DNA of 49,340 nt, from positions 1 through 49,340 of the forward strand of contig JBBTRH010000006.1 in assembly GCA_038065275.1 (NCBI GenBank). Direction: 5' to 3'. Under the pieces are notes generated by a model, which worked only from the letters and a program-made list of their open reading frames with translations, did not search any database and had not been told where the DNA came from. Positions within the stretch are counted from its first letter, which is position 1. Each line of letters starts with the position of its first letter. Of this stretch, positions 14,913 through 49,340 are shown in pieces. This DNA comes from Patescibacteria group bacterium (GTDB lineage: Bacteria; Patescibacteriota; Patescibacteriia; SBBC01; CAIJZX01). The position numbers and the translations under genes are program-made.

Positions 14913-15467
14913 ATGCCCAAGATTCCCTACGATCCGAATTACCTTTGTTTTATCACGACCGTCACGCACAAGCGACGGCCGATATTTCGCGATCAAAAAT
15001 TAGCGGAACGGTTGGGGACGATGATTATGATGGCTTGTCGGTTGAAAGGATTCGTGCCGTTGGTGTACGCGATTTTGCCGGATCATTTACACCTTCTGGT
15101 TTGCTCTCAGCACCTGTTACTACGCACACTCGAAAGTGTGCGTAGTAACAACCAAACCTCTGGCGAGGCAGGAGGCGGACTTTTCCCGCCGTTAGCAGGA
15201 CCCCGCTTGTCGGCGGTGGCCAGTCTGCCTGCGCCACAAGTCGGTGCCCTAGTAAAATCCATTAAAGGTACGTTTTCGCGGACACTGCCGCACGGAACTG
15301 TTTGGAAGCGACGGTATCATTGTTGGATGATTATTGATGGGCGCGATGCGGCTCGCGTGGTTAAATACATCACTTACAATTACCGACACTCCGGTGTGCT
15401 AGAACGGTACGGCCGGGAACCATACGTTTGGTGCGATGATGGGATGATCGAACAGATCTTGTCGTGA
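14913..15467 (+). mobile_element. REP-associated tyrosine (Y1/HUH, IS200-like) transposase RAYT-1
   Basis: FITTVTHKRRPIF, AILPDHLHLL (HUH), KSIKG, WKRRYH, catalytic-like YITYN; contains an internal REP-like palindrome at 15120-15145. Confidence 0.85.
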
Positions 15468-35402: not shown

Positions 35403-35483
35403 ATAGCTCCTTAGCTCTTTAGCTCGCTAGCTCGTTAGTTTGCTAGTCGCTAGCGAGCTAAAGAGCTAACCTAGAGCTAACTC
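35403..35483. repeat. Tandem/inverted TAGCT(C) micro-repeat tract upstream of dnaE
   Basis: tagctc repeats followed by gagcta repeats; ttagctctt ttagctcgctagc pairs with gctagcgagctaa agagctaa. Confidence 0.65.
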
Positions 35484-36762: not shown

Positions 36763-37205
36763 TGGATAGTAGACGATTCAGCTCGCGGTCAAGGCTTCGA
36801 GCGGTCGAATTCTAGGGCGATGGTGTTGTCGGAATATTCGTGATCAAGGTCACGAATAGTGTACATGCCACGCCGCTTAAGCAAGTGAAGATACTTGGTG
36901 CAACGTACTGGAGGAGAACCTGAGTCTAACGACTGGGCAAGTGCTCCCGAATAAAATACAGCCCGGAGAGTCCCGACATTCCGCCCGGCGGAAGTCGGGA
37001 TCCCGACCATCATCTTGGATGAGGCATCGGGATATTCAATGGGCAGTGGTACGGATGGTGCGCTGTACATAACGCGACGTTCAACCGGTGGAACGACGAG
37101 CGGAACGTGAACGTCAACCGCAACGACAACGACTGGAACGACAACTGGTGGTTCGCCGGCGTCCGCAATTCTCTTCACGCTCTCCCCTGGATTATTCCGG
37201 GGGAG
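36763..37205 (+). ncRNA. Putative DGR template RNA (structured 5' leader, TR, 3' hairpin)
   Basis: TGcTATACT at 36748-36756; no credible ORF; hairpins tattcgtga/tcacgaata and 36971-37032; ctcccctgga-ttat-tccgggggag at 37182-37205; boundaries inferred. Confidence 0.6.
37071..37168 (+). repeat. DGR template repeat (TR)
   Basis: Ten AAC codons in the VR frame; invariant 3' ctggtggttcgccggcgtccgcaa shared with the VR. Confidence 0.95.
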
Positions 37206-37302: not shown

Positions 37303-37992
37303 ATGCGTTTACCCGCGCACCGGGAGGCCACCGACTCTGTCGGTGGAGGAAAGCCGGTGCGCACGGCCTCCGGTGCGGGGTTCCGCCCCGCCACGTACAG
37401 CGCTTCGCTTCTACGTGGCCCCGCCCGGTATCGAGTGGAGCCGCCAACTCCTGTTGGCGGGGCTCCACCAGGATACGATTATTCGCTACCAGGACGGTAT
37501 TTTGTCACCATCTGCACGAAATATCGGCAGGAGATTTTTGGTGTCGTGCAGGATGGACAGATACGGCTGAATGTTTTTGGCGAGGCAGTACGAAAATGCT
37601 GGTTTGATCTACCGAATCATTATTATTGTACCCTCGATGTGTTCGCGGTGATGCCAAATCATATTCATGGGATAATTGTTATTCCTGAATTGTTGCACCC
37701 GCCACACACCGCAGGCGGGGGTTTAAACCCCCGCCTGCGGGAGGCCGAGACGCAATCAGGCGTGGAAACAATGCATATTTATCCGTTAACAGAAATGATA
37801 CGCGGTTTCAAAACATTCTCCGCCGCCGCGGTCAACCGTCTCAAGGGTACGAGAGGAGCCCCGCTGTGGCAGACATCTTTCCACGAGCATGTTCTTCGGG
37901 GGACTTCCGATTTGGAGATGGTTCGTGAGTATATTCGTCTTAATCCAATCAATTGGTATCGAGACAGCAAGAATTCCCGGAGGGGAAGATAG
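37303..37992 (+). mobile_element. REP-associated tyrosine transposase RAYT-2 (5' end possibly disrupted)
   Basis: GYDYS..GRYFVTICT, VMPNHIHGII (HUH), IRGFKTFS, LWQTSFHEHVLR, YIRLNP; internal palindrome gcaggcggggg-tttaaa-cccccgcctgc at 37711-37738. Confidence 0.85.
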
Positions 37993-46616: not shown

Positions 46617-47576
46617 ATGCTGATCGATAGTATCGCCATCATCGTTCTCGGGCTCAGCCTGATTAGCCTGGCCGTCATCATCGGTCGAAAATTCCCGACC
46701 TTGGCGGCAATTGATACGTCGGCGCCGGCGGAGGCGACGGCGGGACGCAAGCGGAACATTATTGAAGAACGGCTACGGCGTAAAGTGTCTATGCTCTGGA
46801 CCAAGGTCGCCGGACAAAGTACCCCGATCGCCGTCGCTACCGGCCGGCTCTGGACCGCGGCCCATAAAAAGCTGATTGATCTTGAACACGAATACAAGGT
46901 GCGGTCACTGCCGGTCTTCCTGTCGCGGCGCCAGCGGCGGAAAATCGATCACGAAATCGCCGCGATGCTAGAACAGGCGCGGGCACTCGTTGACGACAAG
47001 GAATATGCCGCGGCCGAAGAAAAGGCGTTGCAGGCGATTCGCCTCGAACCCCGCTCGGTTCCCGCCTTCGAACTTCTCGGCCAGCTCTACCTGGTTACCA
47101 AGGAGCACGGCCACGCCAAAGAGGTGTATCAGTACTTGCTCAAGCTGACGGGCGACTCCGACGCCATCTACGAGCACCTGGGATCAGCTGATCTCGGCGC
47201 CGGACATCTCGCCGAGGCGCGCGACGAGCTCCAACACGCCGTCGAACTCAACCGCACGGTGGCCACCTATCATTTGGAACTGGCCCAGGTGTACACTGCT
47301 CTCGGCGACGCGGCTAAAGCGTTTACCAGCATTCAAGAAGCCGTTCGTCTCGAGCCGAACAACCCCAAACTGCTCGACCAGTACGTTGAAATAAGTATCG
47401 CCGCCGGCAAGAAACAGTTTGCCGAGGATGCGGTGGCCCGTATCGAGGCCGTCAACCCCGAAAACTCGAAGATCGCCGAGTGGCGCGAACGGATTACGGC
47501 GATTGAGGGTCGGCCCTTGACGAATCTCATTGAAACATCCGATACTGCCGACTCGACAACTTCCGCGCCGTTGTAG
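46617..47576 (+). CDS. Membrane-anchored tetratricopeptide repeat protein
   Basis: N-terminal TM; TPR-like A..LEP, LG..Y repeats. Confidence 0.85.
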   Translation: MLIDSIAIIVLGLSLISLAVIIGRKFPTLAAIDTSAPAEATAGRKRNIIEERLRRKVSMLWTKVAGQSTPIAVATGRLWTAAHKKLIDLEHEYKVRSLPVFLSRRQRRKIDHEIAAMLEQARALVDDKEYAAAEEKALQAIRLEPRSVPAFELLGQLYLVTKEHGHAKEVYQYLLKLTGDSDAIYEHLGSADLGAGHLAEARDELQHAVELNRTVATYHLELAQVYTALGDAAKAFTSIQEAVRLEPNNPKLLDQYVEISIAAGKKQFAEDAVARIEAVNPENSKIAEWRERITAIEGRPLTNLIETSDTADSTTSAPL

Positions 47577-47614
47577 TCCCGATGTTCCGCCAGGCAGTTG
47601 GCCCCGCTACTTCT

Positions 47615-47689
47615 GCCCACGTAGCTCAGTGGTAGAGCAGCTCCATGGTAAGGAGCAGGTCCGCGGTTCAAGCCCGCGCGTGGGCTCCA
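47615..47689 (+). tRNA. tRNA-Thr(GGT), intact
   Basis: GCCCACG/CGTGGGC acceptor, GCTCC-atGGTaa-GGAGC, TTCAAGC T loop, encoded CCA. Confidence 0.93.
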
Positions 47690-47719
47690 GAAGCGGCGGG
47701 GTGAATGACACAACACTAT

Positions 47720-47800
47720 GCCTGTCCCGCACCCGAGTGGAACAAGTGGTGCGGGGGGCTAAGGAGTAGGTCCGCGGTTCAAATCCGCGCATAGGCTCCA
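47720..47800 (+). pseudogene. tRNA-Thr(GGT)-like remnant; D arm and 5' anticodon arm replaced by a CCCGCACC...GGTGCGGG palindrome
   Basis: 5' GCCTGT pairs with 3' ATAGGC; intact 3' half taaggagtaggtccgcggttcaaatccgcgcataggctcca (47760-47800). Confidence 0.8.
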
Positions 47801-47842
47801 CGTTTCTCGCAACAACACTTTCAGGCTAAGTCACAGATGGTT

Positions 47843-47893
47843 TCCGGCAAAGCCGGATCCGGCTCCGCCGGACAAATCCGGTCATCGGCTCCA
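47843..47893 (+). pseudogene. 30-bp GGATCC palindrome fused to a tRNA-Thr-like 3' end
   Basis: tccggcaaagccggatccggctccgccgga + caaatccggtcatcggctcca. Confidence 0.7.
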
Positions 47894-47918
47894 CGTTTTC
47901 CGAAGAACAGTACATCAT

Positions 47919-48127
47919 GGGTCGGTAGCGAAGTGGTCATCCCGCACCACTTTCCTTCACAATATTATTGAGTAATCTGCATTTACGGGCAGGTGACGGA
48001 GCGGTCAATCGTACCTGACTGTAAATCAGGCGGCCTCGTGCCTACGCAGGTTCGAATCCTGCCCTGCCCACCAGATTACTCTCTCATGAAGGAAAGTGGT
48101 GCGGGACGAATCCTGCCCGGCCCACCA
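47919..48127 (+). pseudogene. Outer split tRNA-Tyr (5' 47919-47939, 3' 48107-48127) enclosing an IR cassette
   Basis: GGGTCGG pairs with CCGGCCC-ACCA; 20-bp perfect IR at 47940-47959 / 48087-48106 forms the junctions. Confidence 0.85.
47987..48073 (+). tRNA. tRNA-Tyr(GTA), intact, nested
   Basis: GGGCAGG/CCTGCCC, CCTGA-ctGTAaa-TCAGG, long variable arm, ACCA. Confidence 0.95.
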
Positions 48128-48132
48128 AATAT

Positions 48133-48459
48133 ATGTACATCGTGTACATTTTACAAAGCGTCAAAACAGCCCGGTATTATATTGGACACTGTGAAGATTT
48201 GTCTGTACGCTTAAAGAAACACAACGCAGGTAAAGTTCGCTCAACGAAATCCGGGCGGCCCTGGAAAGTTGTTCGAACGAAAAAGTATCCTGCCCGTGCC
48301 GAAACATATAGGCGAGAGAGGCAGATAAAGTCCTATAAAGGCGGGAAGGCATTTAAATCGCCACTGACCGCCACCGCTTCGAGCGGGGTGTCGGCTGGTG
48401 CCTCCATAAATCAGGCGGCCTCGCGCCTTCGCAGGTTCTCCCGCCCATTCATAAGATAA
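48133..48459 (+). CDS. GIY-YIG nuclease (small, YhbQ-like); C-terminus reads into a tRNA remnant
   Basis: VYILQS...YYIG...RLKKHN.G...STK...RPW...RERQIKSYKGG. Confidence 0.85.
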   Translation: MYIVYILQSVKTARYYIGHCEDLSVRLKKHNAGKVRSTKSGRPWKVVRTKKYPARAETYRRERQIKSYKGGKAFKSPLTATASSGVSAGASINQAASRLRRFSRPFIR

Positions 48460-48511
48460 TAAACACTGGCGGGATCCCGCCGGAGGTAGGAGAATCCTGC
48501 CCTGCCCACCA
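48407..48511 (+). pseudogene. tRNA-Tyr 3' half with a 53-nt double-hairpin insertion in the T loop
   Basis: taaatcaggcggcctcgcgccttcgcaggttc-[tcccgcc...ggcgggatcccgccggaggtagga]-gaatcctgccctgcccacca. Confidence 0.85.
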
Positions 48512-48563
48512 CGAAGACGAAAACGAAAGAAAGTTGTGCTGGGTGAGAAATCCTGCCCCCCAG

Positions 48564-48798
48564 GCCTGAGTAGCTCAGCTGGCAGAGCAACGGTTTTATC
48601 CCGCCCCTGAGAATAGGATATAGTAGGCGGGATCATCGAAGTTCTTTCAAAATCTTGCCGGAGTAGCTCAGCGGTAGAGCAACGGTTTTGTAAACCGTAG
48701 GTCGGAGGTTCAAATCCTCTCTCCGGCTCCACCGGCAAGATTTTGGGAACTTCGGGATAAACCGTAGGTCGCCGGTTCGATCCCGGCCTCAGGCTCCA
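48564..48798 (+). pseudogene. Outer tRNA-Thr-type gene split in the anticodon (5' 48564-48597, 3' 48758-48798) by a 160-nt insert
   Basis: All four stems pair perfectly (GCCTGAG/CTCAGGC, GCTC/GAGC, ACGGT/ACCGT, GCCGG/CCGGC), TCCA end; only position 35 is replaced by the insert. Confidence 0.9.
48657..48731 (+). tRNA. tRNA-Thr(TGT), intact, nested
   Basis: GCCGGAG/CTCCGGC, ACGGT-ttTGTaa-ACCGT, TTCAAAT, TCCA. Confidence 0.95.
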
Positions 48799-48866
48799 GA
48801 GAAGTGTAAGTTAATTAAGTTGATTAGTTAATTAAGTTGTCAAAGTTGGTGGCCGGAAAGGAAATT

Positions 48867-49238
48867 ATGGCACAATCATTCTATGAACTTGATATTTGGA
48901 AGAACGGATACAAATTGGTTCTCAAAGTCTATCGCGCCACTGAACGCTTTCCGACTTCGGAAAGGTACGGTCTGATAGATCAGCTGAGGCGATCGGCCAA
49001 CGCAGTTATCGCCAATATCGCCGAAAGTCAAGGCCGGTACTCCTACAGTGATAAAATTCGCGTCCTCTACCAATCCCGCGGCGAGATATTTGAAACAAGA
49101 AGTCATCTCCAGGTCGCCCATGGTCTCGGATATTTTCCAGCCGAAGAATTCAAAAAATTAGATCAAGCGTATGAAGGCTTGCTAGTTGGACTCAACACAT
49201 ATATAAAGTATCTAGCCAAAGCCCGCACGACAAAATAA
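48867..49238 (+). CDS. Four-helix bundle protein (23S rRNA IVP-like / bAvd-like fold)
   Basis: FYELDIW...FPTSERYGLIDQLRRSA..V.ANIAES.GR...SRGE..ET; flanked by AT-rich TTAATTAA micro-repeats. Confidence 0.88.
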   Translation: MAQSFYELDIWKNGYKLVLKVYRATERFPTSERYGLIDQLRRSANAVIANIAESQGRYSYSDKIRVLYQSRGEIFETRSHLQVAHGLGYFPAEEFKKLDQAYEGLLVGLNTYIKYLAKARTTK

Positions 49239-49289
49239 CGAAAAACTTAATTAACTCAATTTCCTCAATTAACTCAATCAACAAACCCT

Positions 49290-49340
49290 ATGTCCCAAGA
49301 CAACCTGATCAAACTCCAGTGTACGGTGTGCAAGCACATC
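49290..49340 (+). CDS. rpmG: 50S ribosomal protein L33 (partial, runs off the window)
   Basis: MSQDNLIKLQCTVCKHI; CxxC; follows the tRNA-Thr/Tyr/Thr cluster. Confidence 0.8.
   Translation, partial: MSQDNLIKLQCTVCKHI

Follow-up and report, generated by a model that had tools for sequence, protein, structure and literature searches.

The 49,340-nucleotide stretch analysed here (the window) comes from a Patescibacteria group bacterium and contains, at positions 47919-48127, one tRNA-Tyr gene nested within another. An intact tRNA-Tyr(GTA) gene lies in a 167-bp cassette with perfect 20-bp terminal inverted repeats, and the cassette in turn separates the two ends of a second tRNA-Tyr gene. The reading that we favour, to which we give a probability of about 0.5, is that this cassette is a non-autonomous, palindrome-ended mobile element that replaces the tRNA gene it destroys. 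We favour it because the ends are exact, no target sequence is duplicated, the sites are specific to tRNA loops, conserved termini stand beside freely evolving interiors, copies occur across genera and a native outer gene encloses a foreign-looking inner one. tRNA genes are usually treated as fixed points of the genome, next to which mobile elements integrate or which they restore. In these genomes of about 1 Mb, where most tRNAs are single-copy, tRNA genes appear to be repeatedly overwritten by cassettes that bring their own copy, and the layered relics record the order of events.

The window is the entire contig C6 of genome G000 (1,091,590 bases, 33 contigs, rated 100% complete), whose order is represented by 21 sampled genomes, Candidatus Kerfeldbacteria metagenome-assembled genomes (MAGs) among them. 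Relatives are labelled G001-G020, a further locus L041 and the sequencing runs X1-X4; G001, G003 and G004 belong to the same genus as G000, G011 to another genus, and G019 and G020 to another family. tRNA genes were called with ARAGORN and Rfam RF00005 (47 in G000) and, by strict BLAST, a gene was taken as nested when a 5′-end fragment lay upstream and a 3′-end fragment downstream of it.

Anatomy of the nested tRNA-Tyr genes

The cassette (47940-48106) is placed between two 21-nt pieces of a tRNA-Tyr gene, and the whole nest (47919-48127) consists of the following parts.

47919-47939, plus strand: outer 5′ relic, GGGTCGGTAGCGAAGTGGTCA (acceptor strand, D-stem strand and D loop to A21), identical at 21 of 21 positions to the first 21 nt of the G003 tRNA-Tyr gene
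47940-47959, plus strand: left terminal inverted repeat, TCCCGCACCACTTTCCTTCA, with its exact reverse complement at 48087-48106
47970-47979, plus strand: left arm of an inner inverted repeat, in the leader of the inner tRNA, pairing 10/10 with 48072-48081
47987-48073, plus strand: intact inner tRNA-Tyr(GTA), called by ARAGORN and by Rfam RF00005 (60.9 bits)
48072-48081, plus strand: right arm of the inner inverted repeat, in the trailer, 100% complementary and taking in the last two bases of the encoded CCA
48087-48106, plus strand: right terminal inverted repeat, TGAAGGAAAGTGGTGCGGGA, which covaries with the left arm across genomes
48107-48127, plus strand: outer 3′ relic, CGAATCCTGCCCGGCCCACCA (T loop from C56, T-stem strand, acceptor strand and ACCA), identical at 21 of 21 positions to the last 21 nt of the G003 tRNA-Tyr gene

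The original prediction, made from the letters of the stretch, had described a tRNA-Tyr gene in a 20-bp inverted-repeat cassette inside a split tRNA-Tyr gene, and each of these parts was recovered to within 1 nt. The inner gene is the sole tRNA-Tyr that ARAGORN and Rfam called in the whole of G000. The terminal repeat is perfect over 20 of 20 bp and its 20-mer is present only twice in the genome. As read from the sequence, the outer pieces pair as a 7-bp acceptor stem with one G-T pair; the outer gene has no positions 22-55 (D loop after A21 through T55), so that it possesses no anticodon arm. Its 3′ piece is identical to the 3′ end of the inner gene at 20 of 21 positions and its 5′ piece to the inner 5′ end at 15 of 21, and a direct repeat of the tRNA 3′ part is present (48053-48076 versus 48107-48130, 92%). 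The letters that flank the cassette, GTGGTCA to the left and CGAATCC to the right, are different parts of a tRNA, and there is no target-site duplication. The centre of the outer gene, from D loop to T stem, had been described as deleted. Its absence is indeed seen, but the loss was probably not part of a simple insertion. The junctions fall on two recurrent hot spots (after G19-A21 and at T55/C56).

The arrangement exceeds chance because of its fold and because of the rarity of perfect repeats of at least 20 bp. The 209 nt folded with -101 kcal/mol (z = -8.27) into a rod ending in a cloverleaf, and 0 of 200 shuffles were as stable. Genome-wide, 19 perfect inverted repeats of at least 20 bp within 300 nt of each other were listed. 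Ten of them were inspected, five being runs of N and five real, the Tyr cassette among the latter; the other nine comprise one at C2:99600, whose 18-nt version was N, and eight with abutting arms on N-bearing contigs. An Rfam scan of 47000-49340 (E up to 1) returned only three tRNAs, with no group I ribozyme core and no intron match. A promoter scan yielded three sites versus 1.1 expected, a weak excess; the single plus-strand site lies upstream of the whole tRNA cluster.

Independent support for the junctions

The nest is located 1.2 kb from a contig end, in an assembly of 33 contigs with N runs. Misassembly at the inverted repeats was checked against Logan contigs. Those of run X1 cover 47843-48032 and 48007-48693, those of X2, from the same study, cover 47826-48032 and 48007-48493, and a contig of X3, from a second study, covers 48007-48491, in every case with 0 differences. 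The right junction is thus bridged in two studies and the left junction in the first study only. In addition, the same anatomy was found in the independent assemblies of G006, G017 and L041, and a 20-bp repeat is below the word sizes usual in assembly. With three runs of two studies in agreement, misassembly was not borne out, and the chance that the nest is an artefact is negligible. Parts of 47560-48830 had little or no contig cover in X3 and X4, and nothing is inferred from these gaps. One X3 contig connects 47756 with 47987 via 40 other letters; it seems to come from a related strain that lacks the left repeat, the outer Tyr 5′ piece and the outer 3′ half of the neighbouring Thr nest (see below).

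A native outer gene and a foreign-looking inner gene

G003 has a compact Thr-Tyr-Thr cluster with a single uninterrupted tRNA-Tyr gene, whose ends equal the outer pieces at 42 of 42 positions. The same allele type is uninterrupted at the same Thr-Tyr-Thr locus in G001, G003 and G004, and the tRNA-Tyr genes of G001, G004 and G011 begin as the outer 5′ piece does. This GGGTCGG-type allele was also found in G007, G010 and G011, uninterrupted except in G007. By these comparisons, the outer pieces are the native, vertically inherited gene. G004 shares the downstream order tRNA-Tyr, GIY-YIG gene, tRNA-Tyr 3′ half; therefore, the cassette would have entered a locus that already resembled that of G004.

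The inner gene, in contrast, shares 79-85% identity with the 10 tRNA-Tyr members of its own family; among those, identity ranges from 80 to 100%. Its closest counterparts are the cassette-borne tRNA-Tyr genes of G019 (91%) and G020 (87%), from the other family, and these follow the same TCCCGCACCACTTTC repeat. In this identity comparison, the inner gene came out as an outlier that looks imported and allied to the cassette-borne tRNAs of another family.

Other tRNA-Tyr nests showed the same design with different parts exchanged. The 20-nt repeat is nearly invariant in five cassettes (here, G020, G017, L041 and G019) while the adjacent spacers are unalignable, and two changes in the repeat are compensated in the opposite arm. 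At a different locus, the G006 tRNA-Tyr nest presents the identical two junctions with other alleles and a variant repeat whose changes are again compensated. The outer acceptor halves covary between the two nests (GGGTAGG/CCTACCC in G006, GGGTCGG/CCGGCCC in G000). This covarying stem, together with the 21/21 and 21/21 matches to G003, supports that the outer fragments came from one gene; the contrary case, that they never belonged together, was not borne out. A tRNA-Cys nest of G006 has a 19-bp perfect repeat of the same variant as its tRNA-Tyr nest. In G007, the tRNA-Tyr nest is perfect, the outer 39 + 48 nt being equal to the inner gene at 87 of 87 positions. In G017 and L041, the Tyr cassette lies in the T loop of a full-length outer gene, and the two form a pair of empty and filled sites: the outer anticodon loop is intact in L041 and holds two hairpins in G017. 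Inner and outer acceptor types are reciprocal between G019 and G017, and in G019 and G020 the cassette is flanked by only one of the two outer halves. Every tRNA-Tyr cassette found lies within a tRNA-Tyr gene.

The TCCCG...CGGGA family of inserts

The ends TCCCG...CGGGA, which had been noticed in two cases of the window, were found genome-wide and order-wide. Short hairpins with these ends (up to 60 nt, stem of at least 7) numbered 75 in G000, and 38 of them lie within 400 nt of an intact tRNA gene, a zone that makes up 3.7% of the genome; for all hairpins, the count is 389 of 7220. The TCCCG hairpins are inserted in each other's loops and abut as CGGGA/TCCCG 18 times in G000. Inserts start with TCCCG and finish with CGGGA with no duplicated base, and their junctions in tRNA genes are exact: TAG/CTCAG (Ala), TTTC/CAA (Gly), CTG/CAAAA (Cys) and GGTTC/GAAT (Tyr). 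The insertion positions are D stem 10/11, the D loop after G19-A21, anticodon positions 33-37 and the T loop around C56. Specifically, TCCCGCACC...GGTGCGGGA ends also flank tRNA-Ala(CGC) and tRNA-Ser(GCT) in G000, and tRNA-Thr(TGT) in G020 and G013.

The tandem junction CGGGATCCCG occurs in 18 copies in G000 and in 8-16 copies in 7 other genomes of the order (8/21 rich), compared with 0-3 copies in 20 genomes of other families and 0-1 for a reversed control. Of 201 genomes sampled across the class, 92 had the end motif TCCCGCACCAC. A 33-nt hairpin is present three times in G000 (0, 2 and 3 mismatches) and recurs in identical form in G011, whereas the neighbouring protein gene reaches only 69% identity even inside the genus. 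Within the order, the pattern GCGGGRCGAATCC gave 13 matches, comprising 2 known tRNA-Tyr nests, 3 tRNA nests or pseudogenes and 8 places in seemingly coding DNA. The commonest flank words among 150 flanks were GGGA (tandem; 19), GAAG (12) and GTAG (6); the last precedes TCCCGA-type hairpins in 6 of 150 flanks versus 0.36 expected. No transposase open reading frame (ORF) was seen between TCCCG ends in G000, the only gene seen there being a GIY-YIG gene in one such cassette.

Two abutting TCCCG hairpins (36971-37000 and 37001-37031, within 36945-37031) stand far from any intact tRNA gene, about 270 nt upstream of a Y1-like ORF of the window described below. A perfect palindrome of at least 20 bp, made of TAGCTC-like units and with no tRNA link, is present at 35411-35470. 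A second inverted-repeat family, GTCAACCCCGTTAGA...TCTAACGGGGTTGAC, occurs at G000:C13:34703-34812 and C20:7095-7208, with perfect 20-bp arms about 70-75 nt apart.

Further nests and tRNA fragments

The original prediction had put forward two like nests within 900 bp, each with matched cargo, as the product of a mechanism rather than an accident. This view was supported and the pattern is wider, with three nests and one older relic in the window and 7 of 47 tRNA genes nested genome-wide by strict BLAST. The other nests of the window are made up as follows.

47595-47800, plus strand: decayed tRNA-Thr(GGT) nest, with an outer D-loop remnant (47595-47601), the intact gene (47615-47689) and an outer 3′ half (47757-47800)
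47602-47614 and 47690-47701, plus strand: repeat arms around the intact gene of the tRNA-Thr(GGT) nest
47725-47756, plus strand: TCCCGCACC...GGTGCGGGG hairpin in the tRNA-Thr(GGT) nest
48407-48438, plus strand: tRNA-Tyr positions 36-67 of the older Tyr relic (within 48407-48562)
48439-48474 and 48475-48491, plus strand: two palindromes in the T loop of the older Tyr relic
48492-48511, plus strand: inner-type 3′ end of the older Tyr relic
48528-48562, plus strand: decayed right repeat and outer 3′ end of the older Tyr relic
48564-48798, plus strand: tRNA-Thr(TGT) nest, with an outer 5′ half (48564-48598), a hairpin (48599-48632), a leader repeat and the intact gene (48657-48731)
48758-48798, plus strand: outer 3′ half of the tRNA-Thr(TGT) nest, following a trailer repeat that ends with CGGGA at 48757

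Homologues of the tRNA-Thr(GGT) nest are better preserved in G017, G018 and G019. The region of the tRNA-Thr(TGT) nest is 83% identical to G017 over 270 nt, and excising 48599-48757 restores a complete outer tRNA to which ARAGORN assigns the anticodon TAT. Downstream of the GIY-YIG gene, about 48491-48562 aligns with the series inner 3′ end, trailer, right repeat and outer 3′ end of both G017 and the live copy; on this alignment, it is an older, decayed copy of the same nest design. A worn tRNA-Thr 3′ end at 47843-47898 is 83% identical to 47771-47805 and follows two abutting TCCGG...CCGGA palindromes, whose variant end motif was also met at the tRNA-Phe locus.

Elsewhere in G000, tRNA-Gly(TCC) forms a three-level nest in which each level is split at 35/36 (TTTC/CAA). 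Excising one TCCCG...CGGGA insert restores a complete outer Cys, Gly(TCC), Ala(TGC)-like or Thr tRNA, and each such insert carries a tRNA of the same isotype. In about a dozen nests read by eye, inner and outer tRNA were uniformly co-oriented. When all TCCCG...CGGGA pairs were excised singly, 9 of 1641 gave a junction-spanning tRNA, several of these being chimeras of an intact gene and a downstream fragment. After hairpin stripping, 6 of 1367 pairs restored a tRNA, including 2 with no tRNA in the insert and 1 Ala(GGC)/Ala(CGC) chimera. ARAGORN with long introns allowed made four calls (C12, C17 and two on C32), none of them at the nests and all taken as false positives. In all of G000, 40 extra tRNA fragments were found; most of them adjoin a gene of the same isotype and their break points cluster at tRNA positions 33-36. 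Downstream of tRNA-Leu(GAG), G000:C9:12608-12985 contains 3-4 tandem truncated tRNA-Leu units, each spanning about positions 25-87 and carrying a palindrome in its anticodon loop; over 52 nt, the first unit is 100% identical to the live gene.

Such fragments raise the possibility that there is no dedicated element, and that local duplication, template switching at palindromes, unequal recombination and gene conversion produced the nests as chance outcomes, which survived as one copy must stay intact; the hairpins would be by-products. Tandem partial arrays fit this explanation (four tRNA-Leu(GAG) 3′ parts, and tRNA-Phe copies overlapping at positions 34-44), and so do the frequent fragments with 100% identity to the resident gene (Phe, Leu, Ser, Glu and Gly(CCC)) and the 39 of 47 tRNAs with a fragment of the same gene within 1 kb under a loose search (E up to 0.5). 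Nests also decay by deletion between strains, L041 being without the right half of the Thr nest of G017. On the other hand, local rearrangement leaves unexplained the invariant TCCCG...CGGGA termini on unrelated interiors, the junctions that fall exactly on the same positions in tRNAs of different isotypes and genera, the identical 33-nt hairpin in two genera, the 20-nt repeat kept across families beside unalignable spacers and the family-foreign inner tRNA-Tyr. Moreover, a tandem triplication predicts direct flanking repeats, not the inverted ones seen here. We regard this explanation as rather improbable.

The nest could also be a design at the RNA level, in which it is transcribed as one precursor and the inserts are spliced as introns, or in which the outer stem and the repeat stem form a scaffold that releases the inner tRNA. 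The rod-plus-cloverleaf fold (z = -8.27) would suit such a role, as would outer pieces unchanged relative to the live G003 allele, a perfect repeat, a G006 nest with the same junctions and a covarying, perfectly paired outer acceptor stem, leaders and trailers that pair across the CCA end in several nests, and the one promoter-like plus-strand site before the whole cluster. Some outer genes are complete except for the inserts and have compensatory acceptor changes (Cys and Thr(TGT)). Against this, the outer tRNA-Tyr, with no anticodon arm, cannot be a tRNA, the outer stem is dispensable in G019 and G020, many outer copies are truncated and all 20 amino acids are served by an uninterrupted tRNA. 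The splicing endonuclease EndA (PF01974) and the ligase family RtcB (PF01139) gave 0 matches in G000, rated 100% complete, while control searches matched 4/14 and 10/14 genomes. Stripping all 112 small hairpins restored 0 tRNAs, no tRNA being interrupted by hairpins alone; when only hairpins were stripped for eight end motifs, TCCCG restored none, and TCCGG restored one tRNA but lost two existing ones. Splicing of the inserts is unlikely because every amino acid has an uninterrupted tRNA and neither EndA nor RtcB was found, and the RNA-level design as a whole appears very improbable.

Candidate enzymes

If the cassette is a mobile element, an enzyme acting in trans would be required, and three ORFs of the window are of interest.

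14913-15467, plus strand: Y1 (HUH) transposase-like ORF, candidate enzyme in trans (Pfam Y1_Tnp 29.4 bits; in NCBIfam, REP-associated tyrosine transposase matches best, with 61 bits)
37303-37992, plus strand: second Y1 transposase-like ORF (Pfam Y1_Tnp 25.2 bits; NCBIfam REP_Tyr_transpos 54.2 bits)
48133-48459, plus strand: small GIY-YIG nuclease ORF (domain 48133-48333; PF01541 46.8 bits) running into hairpins and a tRNA-Tyr fragment; a syntenic gene follows the intact tRNA-Tyr in G004

Both Y1 ORFs show, by eye, the motifs H-x-H and Y-I-x-x-N. Relatives of Y1/HUH proteins in the IS200/IS605 group move single-stranded DNA precisely and without duplications. Y1_Tnp matches number 5 in the 1.09 Mb of G000, two of them in the window. 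In the order, they were found in 8 of 8 genomes with at least 8 tandem junctions versus 4 of 13 with up to 5, although these relatives are not independent samples. Searches of G000 for Cas12f/TnpB-like PF07282 and IS110 PF01548 gave 0 matches each; there is no integrase on C6, the two PF00589 tyrosine recombinase matches being on C17 and C11, and serine recombinases were outside the search.

Small GIY-YIG genes number 12 in G000, and about 9 of them lie within roughly 400 nt of a tRNA gene or inside a nest, all co-oriented with that tRNA. One is found inside a TCCCG-started cassette with an 18-bp inverted repeat in the anticodon loop of an outer tRNA-Ala, and in G004 and G013 GIY-YIG genes lie in the tRNA-Tyr anticodon loop with a duplicated tRNA half. 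These associations suggest a homing-type replacement, in which a nuclease such as a small GIY-YIG protein breaks a tRNA loop and the break is repaired from a cassette-bearing allele, with the outer halves as homology arms. The donor would be either a sister copy or DNA acquired from a relative, the cassette would not be a transposon, and homology itself would make the cargo match the target. It agrees with this that tRNA-Tyr cassettes were found only in tRNA-Tyr genes, and repair from a template close by would suit the nests whose inner and outer copies are identical. However, the GIY-YIG proteins (about 70-110 aa) are a bare nuclease domain with no recognisable DNA-binding domain, and their number is independent of hairpin abundance. 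Homing also leaves unexplained the 15-40-nt hairpins inserted exactly in tRNA loops and in each other, and here the arms are only 21 nt long and the outer arms are native, not co-converted. Homing-type replacement is, in our opinion, an unlikely alternative.

Near another GIY-YIG gene, which lies 140 nt downstream, a tRNA-His(GTG) with the unusual T loop GGCAGAA lies at G000:C11:11696-11766; Rfam scored it at 49.7 bits and ARAGORN missed it.

A model for cassette insertion, and points against it

Under the mobile-element reading, events could have followed several steps. Members of the family insert exactly, without target duplication, at few tRNA positions and in each other's loops, as the junctions described above show. 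The target would probably be the tRNA gene folded as a single-stranded cloverleaf, with the enzyme supplied in trans; the first candidates would be the REP-transposase-like Y1/HUH proteins and the second the small GIY-YIG nucleases beside tRNA genes. Insertion into a single-copy tRNA gene would be lethal unless the insert supplied a working tRNA that has the same identity and orientation and is transcribed from the promoter upstream, and re-invasion of the cassette's own cargo would give multi-level nests. The dead outer gene would then gain hairpins and lose segments between hot spots (here D loop to T loop), a step that comparison among relatives supports in part. Finally, the allele pattern suggests that cassettes may move between lineages.

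The match between cargo and target and the uniform co-orientation would be explained most simply by selection, because each of these tRNA genes exists in one copy and the cluster has a single promoter-like site ahead of it. Tentatively, and with less confidence than in the mobile-element reading itself, we propose that these cassettes could constitute a new class of selfish DNA that recognises tRNA genes by their fold, inserts without duplication, survives by providing a substitute tRNA, drives serial tRNA turnover and moves alleles between families of Patescibacteria. What would be recognised are the loops of a single-stranded cloverleaf, including the pair of D-loop and T-loop sites that touch in the folded molecule.

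Several observations weigh against the mobile-element reading. Neither a transposition event nor an excised circle nor an autonomous element with these ends was seen, G000 has one copy of the full Tyr cassette, and no common target tetranucleotide emerged among the insertion sites (150 flanks). Both Y1 ORFs of the window score under the NCBIfam cut-off of 80 (61 and 54), TCCCG hairpins lie near 1 of 5 Y1 loci inspected, and outside the order Y1 genes occur with no hairpins in 10 of 20 genomes. GIY-YIG counts (1-12 per genome, in 41/41 genomes) do not track hairpin abundance either, these genes being common across the class with or without hairpins. In G017 and L041, the repeat of the Tyr cassette encloses another cargo allele; therefore, cassette and cargo are not strictly co-inherited. 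Identical inner and outer copies (Tyr in G007, Phe fragments here) suggest local duplication or gene conversion, which they fit better than import. The junctions shared by G000 and G006 may mean that the tRNA core was replaced in a single step, at two loops which meet when the molecule is folded, or that the outer stem has a function, instead of insertion and subsequent decay.

Three further candidates were rejected. Palindromic additions at hairpin-sealed breaks were dropped, since the constant TCCCG ends are not copies of the flanks, and so was a tandem triplication, given the orientation of its flanking repeats. Anticodon-nuclease cuts followed by reverse transcription were dropped as far-fetched, a reverse transcriptase having been neither looked for nor seen.

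If the mobile-element reading is true, it explains how tRNA alleles could cross family boundaries and points to a small, structure-directed activity that inserts DNA without target duplication. It would also provide a bacterial counterpart to the debate on the origin of interrupted and split tRNA genes. If the wider selfish-DNA proposal is true, tRNA genes become mobile cargo, and a DNA-level route to split or interrupted bacterial tRNA genes is opened. In practice, such fragments and inserts will confuse tRNA counting, annotation and code inference in Patescibacteria.

Database and literature searches

When an 18-nt repeat pattern was searched in genome contigs, 28 loci were found; 2 were Candidatus Kerfeldbacteria MAGs equal to G017 and G019, and the other 26 came from unrelated organisms and were taken as chance matches. 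Scans of metagenome contigs gave 0 loci for a first repeat pattern and 1 locus for a second. In phage and plasmid collections, 25 + 6 records matched the tRNA body only, and none had the repeats or at least 80% query cover. No RNA runs containing the stretch were listed. In a literature search that left subscription journals and supplementary files outside, nothing was found on nested tRNA genes or palindromic inserts in bacterial tRNA genes, nor on tRNA-linked GIY-YIG genes in Patescibacteria.

Comparison with known systems

The closest likeness among repeats is to repetitive extragenic palindromes (REPs), their REPIN forms and the REP-associated tyrosine transposases (RAYTs): these too are short, GC-rich, multi-copy palindromes, often in tandem, with conserved ends, non-autonomous and accompanied by Y1/HUH genes in the genome. 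GTAG, one of the flank words above, is given as the tag of classical REPs in a passage of PMC3733652. REPs are, however, extragenic, whereas 38 of 75 TCCCG hairpins lie at tRNA genes, many of them inside tRNA sequence. TCCCG elements also have TCCCG as their conserved end, nest in each other's loops and in some cases carry a whole tRNA gene between perfect repeats, and the Y1 genes here are not clearly flanked by the repeats. The TCCCG inserts resemble IS200/IS605 elements in their exact ends and lack of target duplication, but show no insertion 3′ of one fixed tetra- or pentanucleotide, the TCCCG flanks being diverse. Like a MITE (miniature inverted-repeat transposable element), the Tyr cassette is short, encodes no protein, has terminal inverted repeats and an end family common to several copies, and would depend on an enzyme in trans. 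It differs from a MITE in that there is no target-site duplication, no matching autonomous element was found and the cargo is a functional tRNA of the target's type.

Integrase-driven tRNA islands and prophages likewise target a tRNA gene whose function the element restores, and the displaced 3′ end stays as a direct repeat (here 20/21). The anticodon and T loops are the preferred crossover places in tRNA integration, as Williams reportedly described in 2002. In the case presented here, unlike in those islands, the whole gene is replaced, a 5′ relic stays upstream, the ends are inverted repeats and 167 bp hold no integrase.

Archaeal tRNA introns and split tRNAs are similar in that inserts occupy D, anticodon and T loops, several per gene, and in that different tRNAs share related ones. 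The 5′ and 3′ pieces of the split tRNAs of Nanoarchaeum are held together by a long complementary stem, as in the Tyr nest. They differ in that this is a bacterium with an encoded CCA, the hairpin is flush with the junction and forms no bulge-helix-bulge, and the interrupted tRNA genes are never the sole copy. Free-standing homing endonuclease genes can invade a host gene together with a replacement part, for example atp6 of Allomyces mitochondria. The GIY-YIG gene beside duplicated gene parts, and the foreign replacement segment beside a displaced native one, recall these genes, but the Tyr cassette encodes no protein and the GIY-YIG proteins here are a bare nuclease domain.

The intervening sequences (IVSs) of 23S rRNA, which RNase III cuts out of the RNA without the ends being joined again, are also extended hairpins in loops of a stable-RNA gene, sporadic among relatives and sometimes accompanied by a four-helix-bundle '23S rRNA IVS protein'. 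The difference is that rRNA, unlike tRNA, tolerates fragmentation; in the nests, the interrupted gene is lost and the insert supplies a new copy. In G000, the 23S rRNA gene (G000:C8:7578-9417) has AT-rich hairpin inserts of aggttgtaagatttaag...cttaaatcttacaacct type, and two of its Rfam pieces are 164 and 249 nt longer than the model spans. These inserts are not of the TCCCG family, and any link of the nests to rRNA IVSs would be one of analogy only.

Two minor observations were made nearby and elsewhere in the genome. A tRNA-Ile(TAT) gene was found at G000:C9:4676-4748, and only two tRNAs with a CAT anticodon were found in the genome. A gene for a '23S rRNA intervening sequence protein' (48867-49238; Pfam 104.7 bits, TIGR02436 101.1 bits) lies 70 nt downstream of the tRNA-Thr(TGT) nest. 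A perfect 13-bp AT-rich inverted repeat (48809-48821 and 49244-49256) encloses it, and it shares 75-77% identity with its counterparts in the corresponding position of G017, G020 and G003.

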